A DNA stretch of 7,633 nt from a virus (taxonomy: Duplodnaviria; Heunggongvirae; Uroviricota; Caudoviricetes). Positions 1 through 7,633 of this stretch are shown here, piece after piece. The DNA lies in IMG/VR virus record IMGVR_UViG_2703718791_000016. The stretch is one strand, 5' to 3'. The translations under genes were made by a program, and so were the position numbers. Positions within the stretch are counted from its first letter, which is position 1. Each line of letters opens with the position of its first letter. Below the pieces are notes generated by a model. The model was given only the letters and a program-made list of their open reading frames with translations. It ran no database searches and was not told where the DNA came from.

Positions 1-1218
1 CGATGATGCCCCCGCGTTTAGCGCCACTCCTCCCGCATGGCGCAAAATCGCCGTTGCCAGACGGTCGGAAATAATCCCGCGGCGTGCCCAGGCGCTGAAA
101 TGGCTCGCCCTGTCCTGTGACGTCCAGGTGGCTGAGCTGTCACGCCATTTCGAACCGTAATATCCGATACCCGGAATGTCCGGGTCTTCTTCCGGTTTGT
201 TCGTCGGCACATTCACCCCGTTCTCATCCGTCATGAACGGTACGAAATGGATATTCTTTTCCGTTTTGTTTTTGTAGCTGCCGTACACCGTCTGGTACGA
301 GGATTCGTTCTTCTGCTTCCAGAAATACGTCGTGTCCCCGCATATCCAGGGAACACCGTCAGCAGATCCACCGACGCACTGACCTGCCATATCCGCCAGG
401 TCTGCACGGAATTTATCAACCAGCGCACCAAACTGTGCTGCGTGATTTGCCGGCGTACCGCCAAAATCAAATTCCCCCTGCATCCACACCACGGCAAGCA
501 GCACATTTTTCGGGTTCTTCTTCAGTGCTGCTTTTGTTCGACCGATAAGGTCCTTATACAGCGGCTTGTCCACACCCCAGCGGGTTGAATTCTCCGAAGC
601 ACCACTCGCGTCACTGTATGTGCCATCAGCTCCGGTGGTGAACGCTGAACCACCACGACAGCACGGAACCAGCAGAATGCCCGCATTCGCCGGTATAAAC
701 GGCAGCAGTTTTTTGGCGATATGCAGCCCCTGCCCCACGGTTCCGTACTGCCCCTTTGACAGGTCCGCTTTCGGATGGTTAAGGCGGCTCATGTCCTGCA
801 CATCATGCAGACAATGGTCCGCCGGAATGATGTCGTTATATTTGCATGCTGCACCGCCCGGTGTCACCGTACTGCGGCGCGCCAGCTGCTTAATACGCGG
901 GTCCGGACGGTCATATGTCTCCGGCAGCGGAAGGCCTTCACCATATGCCATGCTGTTTGACTGCCCCGCCAGAACCACAACAAAGTAATACTCCGGGTCT
1001 CTGGTGGCGCTGATTACTGTGCCTTCTCCATCCGACGGCTTCACCAACACAGGTGTGGTGACATCACCTTCCGCCGCAATGGCCTGCATCAGAGTATAAG
1101 GCGTGATGGCCACCGGGCTGCCAAATGGCTGCCACCCCTCCTTCAGTTTTTGTGTCAGCTTTTCCGCAAGATCTGACGGCGACGCCGCCCTGACCACATC
1201 GTAGTGTTTAAATACCAT
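1..1218 (-). CDS. nanS: Prophage NanS-p-type sialate (9-O-acetyl-Neu5Ac) esterase, YjhS/SGNH family; N-terminal ~406 codons, 3' end beyond window start
   Basis: Minus-strand frame is open from ATG at 1216-1218 (alternative in-frame ATG at 1234-1236) to position 1 with no stop. It is absent from the ORF track only because the window edge truncates it. Translation starts MVFKHYDVVRAASPSDLAEKLTQKLKEGWQPFGSPVAI and contains the SGNH-hydrolase block I motif VVVLAGQSNSMAYGEG. Identity as the stx-adjacent NanS-p family is from memory of that family, not a search. Confidence 0.8.
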   Translation of the reverse strand, partial: MVFKHYDVVRAASPSDLAEKLTQKLKEGWQPFGSPVAITPYTLMQAIAAEGDVTTPVLVKPSDGEGTVISATRDPEYYFVVVLAGQSNSMAYGEGLPLPETYDRPDPRIKQLARRSTVTPGGAACKYNDIIPADHCLHDVQDMSRLNHPKADLSKGQYGTVGQGLHIAKKLLPFIPANAGILLVPCCRGGSAFTTGADGTYSDASGASENSTRWGVDKPLYKDLIGRTKAALKKNPKNVLLAVVWMQGEFDFGGTPANHAAQFGALVDKFRADLADMAGQCVGGSADGVPWICGDTTYFWKQKNESSYQTVYGSYKNKTEKNIHFVPFMTDENGVNVPTNKPEEDPDIPGIGYYGSKWRDSSATWTSQDRASHFSAWARRGIISDRLATAILRHAGGVALNAGASS

Positions 1219-2441
1219 GACCTTTTCCACCATATAAAGGAACAATAAATTCTTTTCTGATAGAGATTTAAATAAAAATACATTATTTTACAAAAAAAAT
1301 AATATCCATTACAAAAACATCCGATTTTTTTATATTCCCGCTCATCCTGCTAATTTGTATTACAAAAAAATGAAACAACTTGAACCAAAGTGATACAAAA
1401 TTAGAAAAGAAAACCCCAGGAAGACAAAGAAGACGATCTTTTTCAATGAGTTACACTGATTTATTGACTATGATTTTTAGCAAAACAATCGAAAGCAATG
1501 TGTACCGAGAAGGTTAAAAGATGGAATGGATAGTTATTGACACAGTGATATGCCCATCAAGCGGAATAACGTTTTCAACTGTATGGTGTAAAATAAAGTT
1601 GATAATCTGGTATCAGTCAGATGTGTTCCTGCCACCCGGAAGTATTCTCACACCTGTTAACTCAGGTGTGATTATGGATAATAAGCTGCTTCCATTAACC
1701 ATTTACAACGTGACACCATTTAACAGAAAATTCTGGTTCCTTATCAGAAATCAAAAAGAGTGCCCCGGGAATTCAGTTAAAACAAAAATAAAATGCCATA
1801 ATAGTATGTGTGTACTGATGATATGCCCGTATGGATTATATAAGTAACAACATATGAATACATAACAGATAAACTATTGACCTTGAGGCTCATCCATATA
1901 AAGAAGAGCTCTCCGAAGAGGTGTGTATTTGCATGCACATTCCTTTTTTGCTCTATGTCATGACCTCCGGCGACTCTATCCCGGCACCAGCAAACCCGCA
2001 TCATTCTCGTTTCCGGTGTCTCTAAAACCACAGCACACCTGCCCCCCCGCTGAGGGAGGGAAGCACTGTATCCGTACACTCAGCAACAGAAATACCACCT
2101 GCTCACTGCGCTACATATCAGCAACAATTTTATACCCGAACATTATCATTCAACAGCATGGTTCACAACAACATCATAACCCAGGAAACGAGAATCAGAT
2201 CAAAAAAACAGAAATTTTACATGAAAAATACTTTTTATTAATATTGATAGCGTCGTACCACAAAATACGATGAATTATCCCTGAACTTAACATTAATGCC
2301 AGTATGTATTGCCCGCTGGTATCAGCGGGCGCTTTAAGAGATCGTATTCATGACTACCTGGGAAAAAGCTATTTTACTATTGTCAGTTTTTATTGCAGCC
2401 TTATCTGTCTACTTGCTTCACAGCCTGAACTGACCATATCT
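1219..2441. other. AT-rich, ORF-poor intergenic segment at the canonical late-region cargo (stx/moron) position between the methylase and nanS-p
   Basis: No minus-strand ORF of plausible composition lies between the methylase stop (2442) and the nanS start (1218). The sequence is markedly AT-rich (e.g. 1240-1420, 2150-2300) with repeated TACAAAAA-like motifs (~1288, 1309, 1360, 1393). The only ORFs are short or low-complexity. Confidence 0.6.
2350..2433 (+). CDS. Candidate small hydrophobic peptide (27 aa, MTTWEKAILLLSVFIAALSVYLLHSLN), convergent with and ending 8 nt before the methylase stop
   Basis: ATG at 2350 preceded by TAAGAG (2335-2340) at SD-like spacing. The 17-residue hydrophobic core would fit a single transmembrane helix. 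A GC-rich hairpin gcccgctg-gtat-cagcgggc (2311-2330) sits in the putative leader. Too short for composition statistics, so this is a candidate only. Confidence 0.2.
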   Translation: MTTWEKAILLLSVFIAALSVYLLHSLN

Positions 2442-3518
2442 TTATTCATCCTTCCCGTCATCAATTGAGCATGTAAGGATGTGACTAATCTCCTTAACGG
2501 TCTGCGCAAAACGTTCTGCCTCCAGTTCAACACCAGTTGCACGACGCCCGAGCGCCATAGCTGCTTTTATGGTTGAGCCAGAACCCATGAAAAAATCCGC
2601 CACCAGGTCACCCGGACGACTGCTCGCGCAGATTATCTGCCGCAGCATTTCTGCCGGTTTTTCGCACGGATGTTTCCCTGGATAGTACTGCACCGGTTTA
2701 TGCGTCCACACATCGGTGTACGGCACCTGCACCGTCACACCGAAATACCGCCGCAAATTTTTATATTCACTCAGCAGTTCCATGTACTGTCGGTTCAGCT
2801 CACTGTATGTGCTGACCAGTTGGTAATGGGACTTTTCCAGTTCTCCCCGCTGATGTTTCTCTTCTGCCACCCGGGCAAACAGCGACTGTAATTTCAGATA
2901 ATCGCTTTCGTTCGGTAGCTGCCACTGACTGGCACTGAACCAGTGCGACACCATGTTTTTCTTTCCTGTGGCATCTGCAATCTGTTTTGCTGTTATCCCA
3001 AGAGCAGCACGCGCATCACGAAAGTAAGAAATCAGCGGGGCCATCACATGCTGTTTCAGTGCCCTGCCCTTCGCCTCATCGCCATCATCTTTCGGACGAT
3101 ACGGCCCCTGATAATGTTCCGCGAACAGAATGCGTTCTGTGGCCGGAAAATACGCCCGCAGGCTTTCCTTGTTGCACCCGTTCCAGCGTCCGGACGGCTT
3201 CGCCCAGATAATATGGTTCAGCACATTGAAGCGTTCACGCATCATGATTTCAATGTCAGATGCCAGGCGATGGTCACAGAACAGGTAAAGACTTCCGGCA
3301 GGTTTCAGCACCCGCCAGAACTGCGCCAGACACTGGTCCAGCCACTTCAGGTAATCATCGTCGCCCTTCCACTGGTTATCCCAGCCCTCGGGCTTCACTT
3401 TAAAGTATGGCGGGTCTGTGACTATCAGATCGACAGAGTTTTCCGGTAAGGTCTGGATAAATTCCAGGCAATCAGCGTTGATTAACTCACAACTGGATAT
3501 TTTTACAGTATTAAGCAT
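2442..3518 (-). CDS. Beta-class N6-adenine DNA methyltransferase (N6_N4_Mtase type), apparently orphan
   Basis: 358-aa ORF with DLIVTDPPYF (catalytic motif IV) near the N-terminus and DFFMGSGSTIKAAMALGR (AdoMet-binding motif I, FxGxG) near the C-terminus; this motif order defines the beta class, and DPPY favours N6-adenine over N4-cytosine. No restriction endonuclease candidate is adjacent. Confidence 0.9.
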   Translation of the reverse strand: MLNTVKISSCELINADCLEFIQTLPENSVDLIVTDPPYFKVKPEGWDNQWKGDDDYLKWLDQCLAQFWRVLKPAGSLYLFCDHRLASDIEIMMRERFNVLNHIIWAKPSGRWNGCNKESLRAYFPATERILFAEHYQGPYRPKDDGDEAKGRALKQHVMAPLISYFRDARAALGITAKQIADATGKKNMVSHWFSASQWQLPNESDYLKLQSLFARVAEEKHQRGELEKSHYQLVSTYSELNRQYMELLSEYKNLRRYFGVTVQVPYTDVWTHKPVQYYPGKHPCEKPAEMLRQIICASSRPGDLVADFFMGSGSTIKAAMALGRRATGVELEAERFAQTVKEISHILTCSIDDGKDE

Positions 3519-3550
3519 GGATCATTAAGCCTGTCTCTGATAGGCTCATT

Positions 3551-3570
3551 CTGCTTTTGCGCAAAGCAGT
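3551..3570. promoter_or_regulatory. Inverted repeat CTGCTTT-TGCGCA-AAGCAG, 35-65 bp upstream of the methylase start; candidate operator or RNA hairpin
   Basis: A 7-bp perfect inverted repeat flanking the palindromic hexamer TGCGCA, read directly from the sequence between the 65-aa ORF terminator and the methylase ATG. Confidence 0.3.
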
Positions 3571-3656
3571 GGGCCTGAGGTTTGCTTGTGAACCCAACGC
3601 ATGAGCAGATGGCTGGTAGGTGCCCCTAACACCCACCAGCCGCCCATTTACCACAA

Positions 3657-3682
3657 ATAAAAAAGCCTTCACTGCGGAAGGC
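3657..3682 (-). terminator. Intrinsic terminator (minus strand) overlapping the stop codon of the 65-aa ORF
   Basis: On the minus strand: stem GCCTTC / loop CGCAGT / stem GAAGGC followed by TTTTTTATTTG. Confidence 0.5.
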
Positions 3683-3866
3683 GTCTGTAACAACCGAACT
3701 GATAGTCTGCCAGACCCGCCATAACAAGCTGGGTCAGTATTAACTGGCAGCGTTCGCGTGAAAGGTAAGTATTCTGCGCAATCTCCCCGACTGTCGCCGG
3801 GTCGGTAACGCTTAATTCATTAAACACCACTCTGGCGGTTTCTGTCATATCCTGCTGTTTTAGCAT
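3669..3866 (-). CDS. Small (65 aa) putative winged-helix / HTH DNA-binding protein
   Basis: ATG preceded by AAAGGGAAAAAAGAC (purine-rich SD-like). The segment TVGEIAQNTYLSRERCQLILTQLVMAGLA has a helix-turn-helix-like pattern. It lies between two intrinsic terminators, downstream of Q and upstream of the methylase. Confidence 0.4.
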   Translation of the reverse strand: MLKQQDMTETARVVFNELSVTDPATVGEIAQNTYLSRERCQLILTQLVMAGLADYQFGCYRRLPQ

Positions 3867-3986
3867 GTCTTTTTTCCCTTTTGGTTAACGTGACATACCA
3901 ATAACTCTTGTCCAAAAAGCCAGTAAGCAGAAAGACCGGTATTCGCAACCACCAGCGCATTTAACGCCCCGTGCCGTTTTTCAGTC

Positions 3987-4012
3987 ATAAAAAAACCCGC
4001 AAAAAGCGGGCT
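3987..4012 (-). terminator. tR'-like intrinsic terminator about 80-100 nt downstream of the Q stop codon
   Basis: On the minus strand: AGAGCCCGC-TTTTT-GCGGG followed by TTTTTTTA (5-bp all-GC stem plus a 7-8 T run). The position matches the short terminated late leader transcript that Q-modified RNA polymerase reads through in lambdoid phages. Confidence 0.55.
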
Positions 4013-4089
4013 CTTTCAAATGTCCATGTCTGCTATTCGCCTCGCGGTACAGCTTTGCGAAGCTTACCGGAATTGAAGCAGTTTTTACG

Positions 4090-4656
4090 TCAAAAAGCAA
4101 TAACTTTTTTCTCTATACCAAAAGCCATAACCATTGGTTTGTACAAAATAAATTCTGCCACCTTTAGCCAATGCTCAATGCGTCTTTCACAGGTTCTTAA
4201 ACTCCATTCCGGATGTGCATCATTCAGCAGTTCAGCCATTTTGCGCTTAGTCATCCCCCGCCCCACATAACGCTGACTCAGAACATTGAGCAGCCCGGGA
4301 TAACCTGCCAGTACTTCACCAATAACCCTGTCGATTATTAACGCCTCTGAATCGGTACAATGTGCCAGCCAGCTTTTTTGATTGCCGTTGATCATATCCC
4401 GCAAAAAAGCCTCAAGTTCAGGTTTGTCCAGACCCGCTTTTTTCATCCTCCGGAGCGCCTCGTTAATTGCCGTTTTTGTCAGCTTTTTAGAGGTCAGTAA
4501 TTGGTTGAACATATTTCCCGTCTTACCGTCGCCAATATACGACCAACGCCCCCACATACGCAGTTTCCCCTGGATCCAGACACTTTCCAGCGTTTTCAGG
4601 CGTAAATGCTCACCGCTTTTGCCTGTAATTTCCGGGTATATCATATTTATGCTCAC
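4090..4656 (-). CDS. Q: Late-gene antitermination protein Q, Q21/QuuD-like family
   Basis: Position immediately downstream of rusA (GTGA start/stop overlap; alternative ATG at 4644) and upstream of a tR'-like terminator. The segment LRMWGRWS...NQLLTSKK resembles the WGAW...GLITSK pattern I recall from DLP12 QuuD. Family assignment is from memory. Confidence 0.65.
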   Translation of the reverse strand: MSINMIYPEITGKSGEHLRLKTLESVWIQGKLRMWGRWSYIGDGKTGNMFNQLLTSKKLTKTAINEALRRMKKAGLDKPELEAFLRDMINGNQKSWLAHCTDSEALIIDRVIGEVLAGYPGLLNVLSQRYVGRGMTKRKMAELLNDAHPEWSLRTCERRIEHWLKVAEFILYKPMVMAFGIEKKVIAF

Positions 4657-6785: not shown

Positions 6786-6820
6786 TTGAAAATAAAAACA
6801 AAAACCCGCCGAAGCGGGTT
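6786..6820 (-). terminator. Intrinsic terminator of the hok mRNA (minus strand)
   Basis: On the minus strand: AACCCGC-TTCG-GCGGGTT followed by TTTTGTTTTTATTTTC, 70-100 nt downstream of the hok stop. Confidence 0.6.
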
Positions 6821-6888
6821 AAGTGCGGGTGCGTTGAGGATGCCTGCCACATCAGAGGTGGCGAGGGATTTCTCCCTCGCCGGGTCTC

Positions 6889-7044
6889 TTACTCCTCAGG
6901 TTCGTAAGCTGTGAAGACAGCGACCTCCGTCTGGCCGGTTCGGATTCGTACCTCGCAGAGGTCTTTCCTCGTTACCAGTGCCGTCACTATGACGGTTAAA
7001 CAGATGACGATCAGGGCGATTAACATCGCCTTTTGCTGCTTCAT
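6889..7044 (-). CDS. hokD: Hok/Gef-family type I toxin (51 aa), HokD/RelF-like
   Basis: Translation MKQQKAMLIALIVICLTVIVTALVTRKDLCEVRIRTGQTEVAVFTAYEPEE is unmistakably Hok/Gef family (single transmembrane helix, conserved C-terminal periplasmic tail). SD AAGGAGAAG lies 8 nt upstream of the ATG at 7044. The HokD assignment is from memory. Confidence 0.88.
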   Translation of the reverse strand: MKQQKAMLIALIVICLTVIVTALVTRKDLCEVRIRTGQTEVAVFTAYEPEE

Positions 7045-7101
7045 AGCCTGCTTCTCCTTGCCTTTCGGCACGTAAGAGGCTAACCTACATGTGTCTAGCA
7101 T
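6889..7101 (-). CDS. mok: Mok-like in-frame N-terminally extended reading frame (70 codons) overlapping hok
   Basis: ATG at 7099-7101 with GAGG 8-9 nt upstream, giving a 19-codon in-frame extension of hok. This parallels the mokC (69 aa) / hokC (50 aa) arrangement in E. coli K-12 as I recall it. Confidence 0.45.
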   Translation of the reverse strand: MLDTCRLASYVPKGKEKQAMKQQKAMLIALIVICLTVIVTALVTRKDLCEVRIRTGQTEVAVFTAYEPEE

Positions 7102-7167
7102 GAAATTGGCCTCAGATTAATGTTAAGCGTCTTGCAGGACGCGTAATGTTAACTGGGGCTTTTCTCT
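7093..7167 (+). ncRNA. sok: Candidate Sok-like antisense RNA covering the mok translation-initiation region
   Basis: Plus-strand promoter-like TTGCCT (7058-7063), 17 bp spacer, TAACCT (7081-7086). The predicted transcript is antisense to the mok SD and start. A nested hairpin (GCGTC/GACGC at 7127-7142, enclosed by 7109-7115 pairing with 7153-7159) is followed by TTTTCTCT. Boundaries are approximate and unverified. Confidence 0.3.
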
Positions 7168-7284
7168 ATCTGCCTTTGGTGTTCATGCCTGAGACAGATA
7201 GCCTCAAGCACCCGCAGCCATTCTACTTAACTCCCGTTACCCCGCCAATATGAAATCAGTCAGAAAGGCGATCCATAAGAATAA

Positions 7285-7312
7285 TGAACCGCCCCGGGTT
7301 TCCTGGAGAGTA
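7285..7312. repeat. Terminal inverted repeat (IRR) of the IS3-family element
   Basis: TGAACCGCCCCGGGTTTCCTGGAGAGTA lies at the element boundary, 15 bp outside the transposase stop. The exact IR length was not determined. Confidence 0.55.
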
Positions 7313-7326
7313 TTTTATCTGTGAAC

Positions 7327-7633
7327 TCAGGCTGCCAGATCATTATTTCCGATGGAAGCATAATAAGCTTTTTCTGCTTCTGCCGGAGGAATATGGCCCA
7401 GCCTTTCCAGCAATCGTCGATTGTTATACCAGTCCACCCACGTTCGTGTGGCCAGTTCCACTTCTGTCCGGTTTTTCCAGCTATTACGGTGTATTACCTC
7501 CGCTTTGTAAAGACCATTGATGCTCTCAGCCATCGCGTTGTCATACGAGTCGCCAGTACTCCCTGTTGATGCCAGTAATCCGGCTTCCTTAAGCCGCTGC
7601 GCGTAGGCCAGCGATACATACTGAGAACCTTTA
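7327..7633 (-). CDS. IS3-family transposase OrfB (rve/DDE integrase core), C-terminal ~101 codons; 5' part beyond window end
   Basis: Minus-strand frame is open from the window edge: KGSQYVSLAYAQRLKEAGLLASTGSTGDSYDNAMAESINGLYKAEVIHRNSWKNR...LGHIPPAEAEKAYYASIGNNDLAA, stop at 7327-7329. The DSYDNAxAES region carries the conserved third acidic residue of the DDE triad. The ORF track shows only the 68-aa Met-initiated tail. Confidence 0.85.
   Translation of the reverse strand, partial: KGSQYVSLAYAQRLKEAGLLASTGSTGDSYDNAMAESINGLYKAEVIHRNSWKNRTEVELATRTWVDWYNNRRLLERLGHIPPAEAEKAYYASIGNNDLAA

Follow-up and report, generated by a model that had tools for sequence, protein, structure and literature searches.

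An RNA element of about 140 nucleotides lies directly in front of an adenine methyltransferase gene in a stretch of virus DNA from IMG/VR (record IMGVR_UViG_2703718791_000016; Duplodnaviria; Heunggongvirae; Uroviricota; Caudoviricetes). The whole stretch that was analysed, 7,633 nucleotides long, is called the window below. This leader is a conserved structured RNA, apparently undescribed so far, that constantly accompanies the M.EcoGII-type methylases of enterobacterial prophages. On its 5' side lies a small open reading frame (ORF) for 65 amino acids, called orf65 here. The leader and its immediate neighbours are as follows, in positions of the window.

3519-3651, minus strand: structured leader RNA (covariance model R1, 149 bits at 3504-3664, minus strand)
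3642-3646 with 3570-3574, minus strand: leader helix P1
3611-3641, minus strand: leader helix P2
3581-3609, minus strand: leader helix P3
3551-3569, minus strand: leader helix P4, CUGCUUU-GCGCA-AAAGCAG, described as a palindrome in an earlier note on this DNA
3520-3524, minus strand: conserved UGAUC, one base 5' of the AUG, with GCTTAcTGATCtATG kept in almost all leader-bearing loci
2442-3518, minus strand: methylase of the M.EcoGII family, 358 amino acids (Pfam N6_N4_Mtase)
3669-3866, minus strand: orf65, a stand-alone winged-helix protein of 65 amino acids
3655-3682, minus strand: intrinsic terminator, the second in this region, overlapping the stop codon of orf65 (terminator scan; inverted repeat I3)
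150 nucleotides, minus strand: spacer between orf65 and the methylase gene

The consensus model includes a three-way junction (P1 to P3), the hairpin P4 and, before the AUG, a conserved tail that is single-stranded, GUGAGCCUAUCAGAG...UGAUC. P1 pairs UGGGC with GCCCA and closes the junction, P2 is a hairpin of 12 base pairs, P3 is a hairpin interrupted by a small internal loop, and P4 is a separate element. In an alignment of E. coli, Klebsiella, Buttiauxella and Salmonella loci, the spacer between orf65 and the methylase is more conserved than the genes that flank it. The leader is 74-89% identical between genera, as compared with 25-52% at the four-fold degenerate sites of the methylase gene, which amounts to saturation.

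There are 80 methylase loci in our collection, all drawn from a protein-based scan of one genome per species. An element of about 138 nucleotides abuts the methylase start codon in nearly all of the Enterobacterales loci, about 45 at the species level, as judged with nhmmer and with the covariance model, the latter adding two divergent leader copies to the nhmmer set. A DNA-pattern scan of viral contigs yielded 121 further copies. The methylase gene follows directly in 118 of the 119 contigs that leave room to judge, and the lone exception is a truncated leader copy (L109).

Compensatory changes are found in all four helices. Among 88 distinct sequences, 93.9% of the cells are standard-paired, versus 29-43% when the partners are slid by one to three columns. 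Two-sided changes occur in 25 of 31 pairs of alignment A6, versus 5-9 with slid partners and 5.8 after shuffling, although A6 was fitted to the covariance model and its pair counts are therefore biased towards the structure. Fewer pairs (8) have two-sided changes in an alignment made with MAFFT (A5), which points in the same direction. One pair in P3 appears as C-G 30 times, as U-A 29 times and as A-U 22 times. Frequent U-G pairs would be C-A mismatches on the opposite strand, and thus the fold belongs to the RNA of the methylase sense.

Divergent leader copies are found in Pseudocitrobacter, on a Vibrio plasmid and on two metagenomic contigs. They rebuild P2, P3 and P4 with other letters, wherein P2 is formed by GCGGGA/UCCCGC, GGCCAG/CUGGCC or GACCGU/ACGGUC and P4 by GCGA/UCGC or GCUCU/AGAGC. 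The junction nucleotides are unchanged in these copies.

Known RNA classes do not account for the element. A search against Rfam 15 gave no match at E<=1 on either strand between positions 3500 and 3700, which excludes AgvB, AsxR, STnc100 and every class of riboswitch for S-adenosylmethionine (SAM) or S-adenosylhomocysteine (SAH), and a scan for transfer and transfer-messenger RNAs found nothing in the window. Neither is the spacer coding. A frame that begins at the AUG in AAUGGGCGG has 32 codons in the window but stops after 7 in the consensus, and the insertions and deletions are not multiples of three; a second frame of 60 amino acids (3511-3693) has no family match. We also considered alternative helices, in which the 5' AUGGGC pairs with GCUCAU, the tail GUGAGC pairs with GCUCAU or with GGCCCAC, or AUCAG pairs with CUGAU near the start codon. 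Each of these has one or two supporting sequences and several that contradict it. Literature searches on M.EcoGII, M.EcoGI, the Shiga toxin (Stx) phage pR' region, prophage small RNAs and structured-RNA surveys, in which subscription journals are little covered, gave no description of the leader or of orf65. Likewise, neither an upstream leader nor a 65-amino-acid ORF appears in the published account of M.EcoGII (PMC5778455), where the word 'upstream' does not occur.

The earlier note described an inverted repeat of 20 base pairs at 3551-3570 and compared it, together with orf65, to the controller protein and operator of a restriction-modification system. There is indeed an inverted repeat (I6), although not a perfect 20-mer: two arms of seven nucleotides, 100% complementary, span 3551-3557 and 3563-3569 and are separated by five nucleotides. 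This repeat is P4 of the leader. All six of its modelled pairs exhibit two-sided changes, and compensatory variants are present in loci L056, L065 and L055. P4 is as conserved in loci that lack orf65 as it is elsewhere, and thus the repeat is not retained for the sake of orf65.

The same note gave orf65 its own terminator, and the scan bears this out. A stem-loop at 3665-3682 (minus strand) has the stem GCCTTC/GAAGGC, a loop of six nucleotides and the tail TTTTTTATTT, and the TGA stop codon of orf65 sits within this hairpin. A hairpin is found at this position in 49 of 49 aligned loci, with varying sequence.

It was also correct in noting a winged-helix-like segment in the 65-residue product. 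orf65 is a real, conserved gene with homologues in at least eight enterobacterial genera, and its AlphaFold model is a winged helix (H1-H2-H3 plus a beta wing) with a predicted local distance difference test score (pLDDT) of 93. The best structural matches of the model are winged helices of the MarR, ArsR, IclR and Z-alpha types. DpnI-type winged helices, which would have suited a reader of N6-methyladenine, are absent from the best structural matches listed. The protein contains two cysteines. It carries the name TrmB at NCBI, but its match to that family (PF01978, 17.3 bits, E 0.0044) lies below the Pfam cut-off of 25.6 bits. No NCBIfam model matches, and the sole match is phrog_331, a family of unknown function.

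Few proteins belong to the orf65 family, which accounts for 61 clusters out of 1.8 billion representatives. Every homologue examined, down to 42% identity, is found directly 5' of an M.EcoGII-type methylase gene, whereas the reverse does not hold: 18 of the 45 species-level loci with a leader (about 40%) lack orf65, and there the leader directly follows Q, the gene for the late antiterminator, or follows unrelated genes. Conservation of the small ORF with the methylase, on which the earlier note had staked its proposal, is thus found from the side of the ORF only. A remote winged-helix ORF precedes the divergent Pseudocitrobacter leader copy.

Two further observations concern the region around orf65. 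In loci L022 and L026, a protein of 79 amino acids with three CxxC pairs (2558-2797; zinc-ribbon-like, no Pfam match) is encoded directly 5' of the leader, in the slot of the missing orf65, and it may be another small nucleic-acid-binding partner. In the window, a frame of 42 codons ('orf42', 3860-3988, minus strand) begins directly after the T-run of the terminator that follows Q and overlaps the start of orf65 (ATGCTAA). In some E. coli prophages the two are fused in frame, giving gene calls of 106 amino acids, some of them named 'lipoprotein', and phrog_331 covers both parts. We considered orf42 as a coding extension of orf65, but it is probably not coding, as the extension is not kept in other genera outside Escherichia.

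The methylase itself belongs to the M.EcoGII family of non-specific beta-class N6-adenine methyltransferases, an enzyme type that is already known. Residues 29-340 match PF01555 (N6_N4_Mtase) with 147.8 bits against a cut-off of 26.7 (E 5.9e-43). DPPY occupies residues 35-38 and FMGSG lies near residue 310, so that the catalytic motif is N-terminal to the S-adenosylmethionine motif in the order of the beta class. Its relatives in the PDB are beta-class enzymes such as M.RsrI, CcrM and MboIIA. No nuclease gene is found next to it, whether in this DNA or in its annotated identical counterpart, and hence the gene was rightly called an orphan. Identity to M.EcoGII is about 91% (320 of 350 residues) when the reference is the sequence printed in the supplement of PMC11551740, which was machine-read and has a few errors. 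The enzyme of phage 1720a-02 is 90% identical to the window's and was named a close homologue of M.EcoGII by Murray et al. 2018 (PMC5778455). In the literature (PMC5778455 among others), M.EcoGII acts on adenine whatever the surrounding sequence and also on RNA and on DNA:RNA hybrids, is toxic when constitutive and stays silent in lysogens. By homology, the window's enzyme would be expected to methylate adenine in essentially any sequence context.

The window's enzyme shares its beta-class architecture and its prophage setting with M.EcoGII and M.EcoGI from an E. coli O104:H4 prophage (PMC5778455), but it differs from M.EcoGII by a C-terminus that is nine residues longer and by a private substitution. 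This change, G82D (FCGHR to FCDHR, codon 82 at 3273-3275), is unique to the window's copy among 190 homologues. In 182 of the 190 the position holds G, and these include two relatives with 99% identity; seven distant homologues have S. The substitution could be hypomorphic or inactivating and so lower the activity of a toxic gene. Thus, although the catalytic and cofactor motifs are intact as the earlier note stated, they are no guarantee of full activity.

Leader-bearing methylase genes have no canonical Shine-Dalgarno sequence; their leader-less homologues carry AAGGA. The conserved UGAUC near the AUG may pair with the GAUCA part of the 3' end of 16S ribosomal RNA. The same letters contain a GATC (Dam) site in essentially all leader-bearing loci. 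Transcription of the mom gene of phage Mu is controlled via Dam sites, and by analogy the GATC at 3520-3524 may have a role at the DNA level.

The upstream part of the window is organized as follows.

6889-7213 (hokD/sok) to 4090-4656 (Q), minus strand: hokD/sok, then rem, a DUF968 gene, rusA and Q
4090-4656, minus strand: Q-type late antiterminator (Pfam DUF1133, E 3.7e-105; Phage_antitermQ, E 5.9e-08)
3989-4010, minus strand: intrinsic terminator resembling tR', directly 3' of Q (CCCGC-TTTTT-GCGGG followed by T7, read from the sequence)

The Q gene is annotated 'DUF1133 family protein' in an identical locus, L001. The hairpin at 3989-4010 is not listed by a simple terminator scan. On the 3' side of the methylase lie an AT-rich island (about 1220-2300) and then a frameshifted esterase-like gene. 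In E. coli OkiPb01713, a stretch identical to the window continues into holin, lysozyme and terminase genes, and therefore the region is the start of a lambdoid late operon: orf65, leader and methylase lie on the same strand as Q and 3' of both Q and the tR'-like hairpin, with lysis genes following in L001. The late-operon position claimed by the earlier note is thus confirmed, and its suggestion of a late anti-restriction cargo is plausible given the resemblance to M.EcoGII and the Q-dependent region, although that reading is already known. The same cassette is preceded by four unrelated Q families in Klebsiella, Buttiauxella, Salmonella and E. coli. A simple scan for sigma-70-like promoters found none in 2300-4200.

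Of 5426 complete E. coli genomes, 2231 (about 40%) carry a 1.8-kb stretch with the cassette, as do many Stx2 phages. In phage phiP27 the cassette is located between Q and the tRNA and stx genes, and in phage 1720a-02 orf65, leader and methylase lie between Q and stx2A.

The stretch from the stop codon of Q to the tR'-like terminator is where a short late-leader RNA like StxS or 6S would be made. This stretch (3990-4063, minus strand) has a sub-threshold match to isrK (19.8 bits, E 0.72), as does 6799-6880 (minus strand, 25.7 bits); the gathering score is 50. The neighbourhood is the same as that of the late-leader RNAs between PR' and tR', namely lambda 6S RNA, StxS and Salmonella IsrK, and the weak isrK-like match likewise ends in a tR'-type terminator. 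However, the isrK-like element is 5' of orf65 and is separate from the methylase leader at 3519-3651.

Several other observations come from the remainder of the window. The AT-rich island encodes a homologue of the IraM anti-adapter (1521-1847, plus strand; NCBIfam PRK09919, 144 bits; phrog_4407), and in Stx phages such as phiP27 the tRNA and stx genes take this slot after the methylase. The homologue is a moron that could stabilize RpoS. The gene 3' of the island (1-1218, minus strand) is probably a pseudogene. The annotation of the identical locus lists a DUF6645 protein with a frameshift here, where Stx phages carry their nanS-p-type esterase. A complete hokD toxin gene with the Sok antisense RNA (6889-7213, minus strand; Rfam RF01794, 118 bits) is located at the early-late junction, and a fragment of an IS3-family transposase is found at the right end (7284-7633).

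More distant homologues of the methylase, with 40-53% identity, occur in Shewanella, Vibrio and Acinetobacter. Com-family zinc-ribbon ORFs lie directly 5' of these genes and overlap them. Two of the four exceed the Pfam cut-off for PF10122, with 33 and 48 bits.

L059, 2877-3044: Com-type ORF, above the cut-off
L069, 2820-3008: Com-type ORF, above the cut-off
L060, 2880-3041: Com-type ORF, below the cut-off
L065, about 2835-2945: Com-type ORF, below the cut-off

The Vibrio plasmid locus (L065) carries a divergent leader, a Com-like ORF and the methylase in series. In phage Mu, Com activates translation of the toxic mom gene. Two other non-specific methylases, Hia5 and Hin1523, have a published com-methylase arrangement as well (Drozdz et al. 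2012, PMC3299994).

These observations cause us to view the cassette as an anti-restriction module that depends on Q for its late expression and gates its toxic enzyme at a post-transcriptional level, in function like com-mom, and we give this proposal somewhat better than even chances. Post-transcriptional gating is favoured because of the Com-type neighbours of homologues, the com-methylase precedents and the lack of a Shine-Dalgarno sequence in leader-bearing genes. Judging from the layout and the literature, transcription from the late promoter would halt at tR' unless Q modifies RNA polymerase, and any read-through would end at the second terminator, the one overlapping the stop codon of orf65. 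Together, the two terminators would ensure transcriptional silence in the lysogen. A Q-modified polymerase would pass both and produce one mRNA that carries orf65, the leader and the methylase. The methylase, as its family membership suggests, would shield progeny phage DNA from many restriction systems while being toxic to the living host. The leader would then serve as a cis-acting post-transcriptional gate that sets the timing or the amount of methylase translation, or the lifetime of the message. orf65 may serve this methylase family alone, as an accessory partner that binds nucleic acid and most likely modulates the leader or the enzyme, and might play the part that Com plays for mom, which is the weakest step of this proposal.

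As in Mu com-mom and the Hia5 and Hin1523 operons, a toxic, broad-spectrum DNA-modifying enzyme would be made late, its toxicity here being taken from the M.EcoGII literature. Mu and the window also have in common a very small nucleic-acid-binding protein encoded 5' of the enzyme and a structured RNA where the enzyme gene begins. However, orf65 is a winged helix and not a Cys4 zinc ribbon like Com, and the RNA is a three-way junction of 140 nucleotides plus a hairpin, whereas that of Mu is a short stem-loop. Moreover, orf65 is dispensable in many loci, and no promoter control of the Dam/OxyR type is evident here.

Several findings weigh against a com-mom-like module. In addition to the bias of the A6 pair counts, covariation rests on relatively few divergent sequences, the element being highly conserved. 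An all-against-all column search found no adjacent covarying run that would indicate extra helices or pseudoknots reaching the start codon. Accessibility of the start region is predicted to be variable, with a mean unpaired probability of 0.44 and no consistent sequestration. The late promoter PR' was not recognized by a simple scan. orf65 has neither a zinc ribbon nor homology to Com, and it is not an obligatory activator because so many leader-bearing loci lack it. A Proteus-type clade lacks the leader yet has orf65, a terminator and AAGGA as an ordinary ribosome-binding site, and therefore leader and orf65 are separable accessories of one enzyme family.

A bolder version of the gate is that the leader is a new class of RNA switch, responding to a ligand or a protein (SAM or SAH, the methylase or orf65), that licenses translation of the genome-wide hypermethylating enzyme only in lytic growth. 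We regard this as a tentative idea with a minor chance of being correct.

Among competing explanations, autogenous control stands up best, even though we consider it unlikely. The methylase would limit its own production by binding or methylating the leader, as might suit an enzyme family whose type member acts on RNA and DNA:RNA hybrids and is toxic in excess (PMC5778455). The linkage between leader and enzyme is almost absolute and tighter than that between leader and orf65, but the leader-less homologues with an ordinary Shine-Dalgarno sequence manage without such an operator.

The leader might instead be a riboswitch-type sensor of SAM, SAH or a signal of lytic growth that switches methylase translation, an explanation we find distinctly unlikely. 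Its unpaired and junction nucleotides (AAUGGGCG, CCAU, ACC-AAGGCCCAC and GUGAGCCUAUC) are constant while the stems covary, which is typical of aptamers, and the gene whose start codon it adjoins encodes a SAM-dependent enzyme. The failure to match any SAM or SAH class or other Rfam family argues against this, as does the lack of an expression platform or alternative helix supported by covariation. In addition, the timing of phage late genes is usually set at transcription and not by metabolites.

Quite improbable is that the element aids processing or stability, or is cut from the late transcript as a trans-acting small RNA, with the methylase merely a constant neighbour. Prophage late regions are rich in small RNAs, the leader begins directly after a terminator-like hairpin in every locus, and it precedes the tRNA-stx region in Stx phages. 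However, it has no terminator of its own (no U-run follows P4), it runs without a gap to the start codon, and it is found apart from the methylase only in the truncated copy L109.

We consider the controller arrangement put forward in the earlier note to be very improbable. In this arrangement, orf65 would bind the palindrome at 3551-3569 as double-stranded DNA and set methylase transcription as controller (C) proteins do. The resemblance is genuine insofar as a small protein with a DNA-binding type of fold is encoded next to the methylase, and only next to such methylases, with a real inverted repeat nearby. However, C proteins are Xre-type helix-turn-helix proteins of about 80 amino acids, and orf65 has a different fold. 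The repeat is located 3' of orf65, within a larger covarying RNA fold, and not 5' of a C gene, and no C-box is found 5' of orf65. Its equal conservation without orf65, and the divergent loci that keep the pairing while changing the sequence, are at odds with a DNA operator. Furthermore, no promoter is predicted in the spacer, and there is no co-regulated endonuclease whose timing would need control.

That the spacer has no RNA function, and was conserved by recent horizontal spread of a mobile and very common cassette or as a DNA-level site, has next to no chance of being correct and is largely refuted already by the conservation of the leader beside saturated synonymous sites, the compensatory changes in all four helices and the strand-specific G-U pairs.

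Unrelated phage lineages may thus solve the problem of late and limited expression of an anti-restriction methylase in different ways, by a Com zinc ribbon, by a winged-helix protein, by a structured leader or by a combination of these. An RNA element located between Q and the Shiga toxin genes, as in phiP27 and many Stx2 phages, could affect the toxin mRNA, and if the leader were a switch, it could also shape the toxin-encoding late transcript in many Stx2 phages. M.EcoGII is a widely used tool for mapping chromatin and RNA, and a folded leader with a winged-helix partner offers a testable answer to how the toxicity of such enzymes is naturally restrained.

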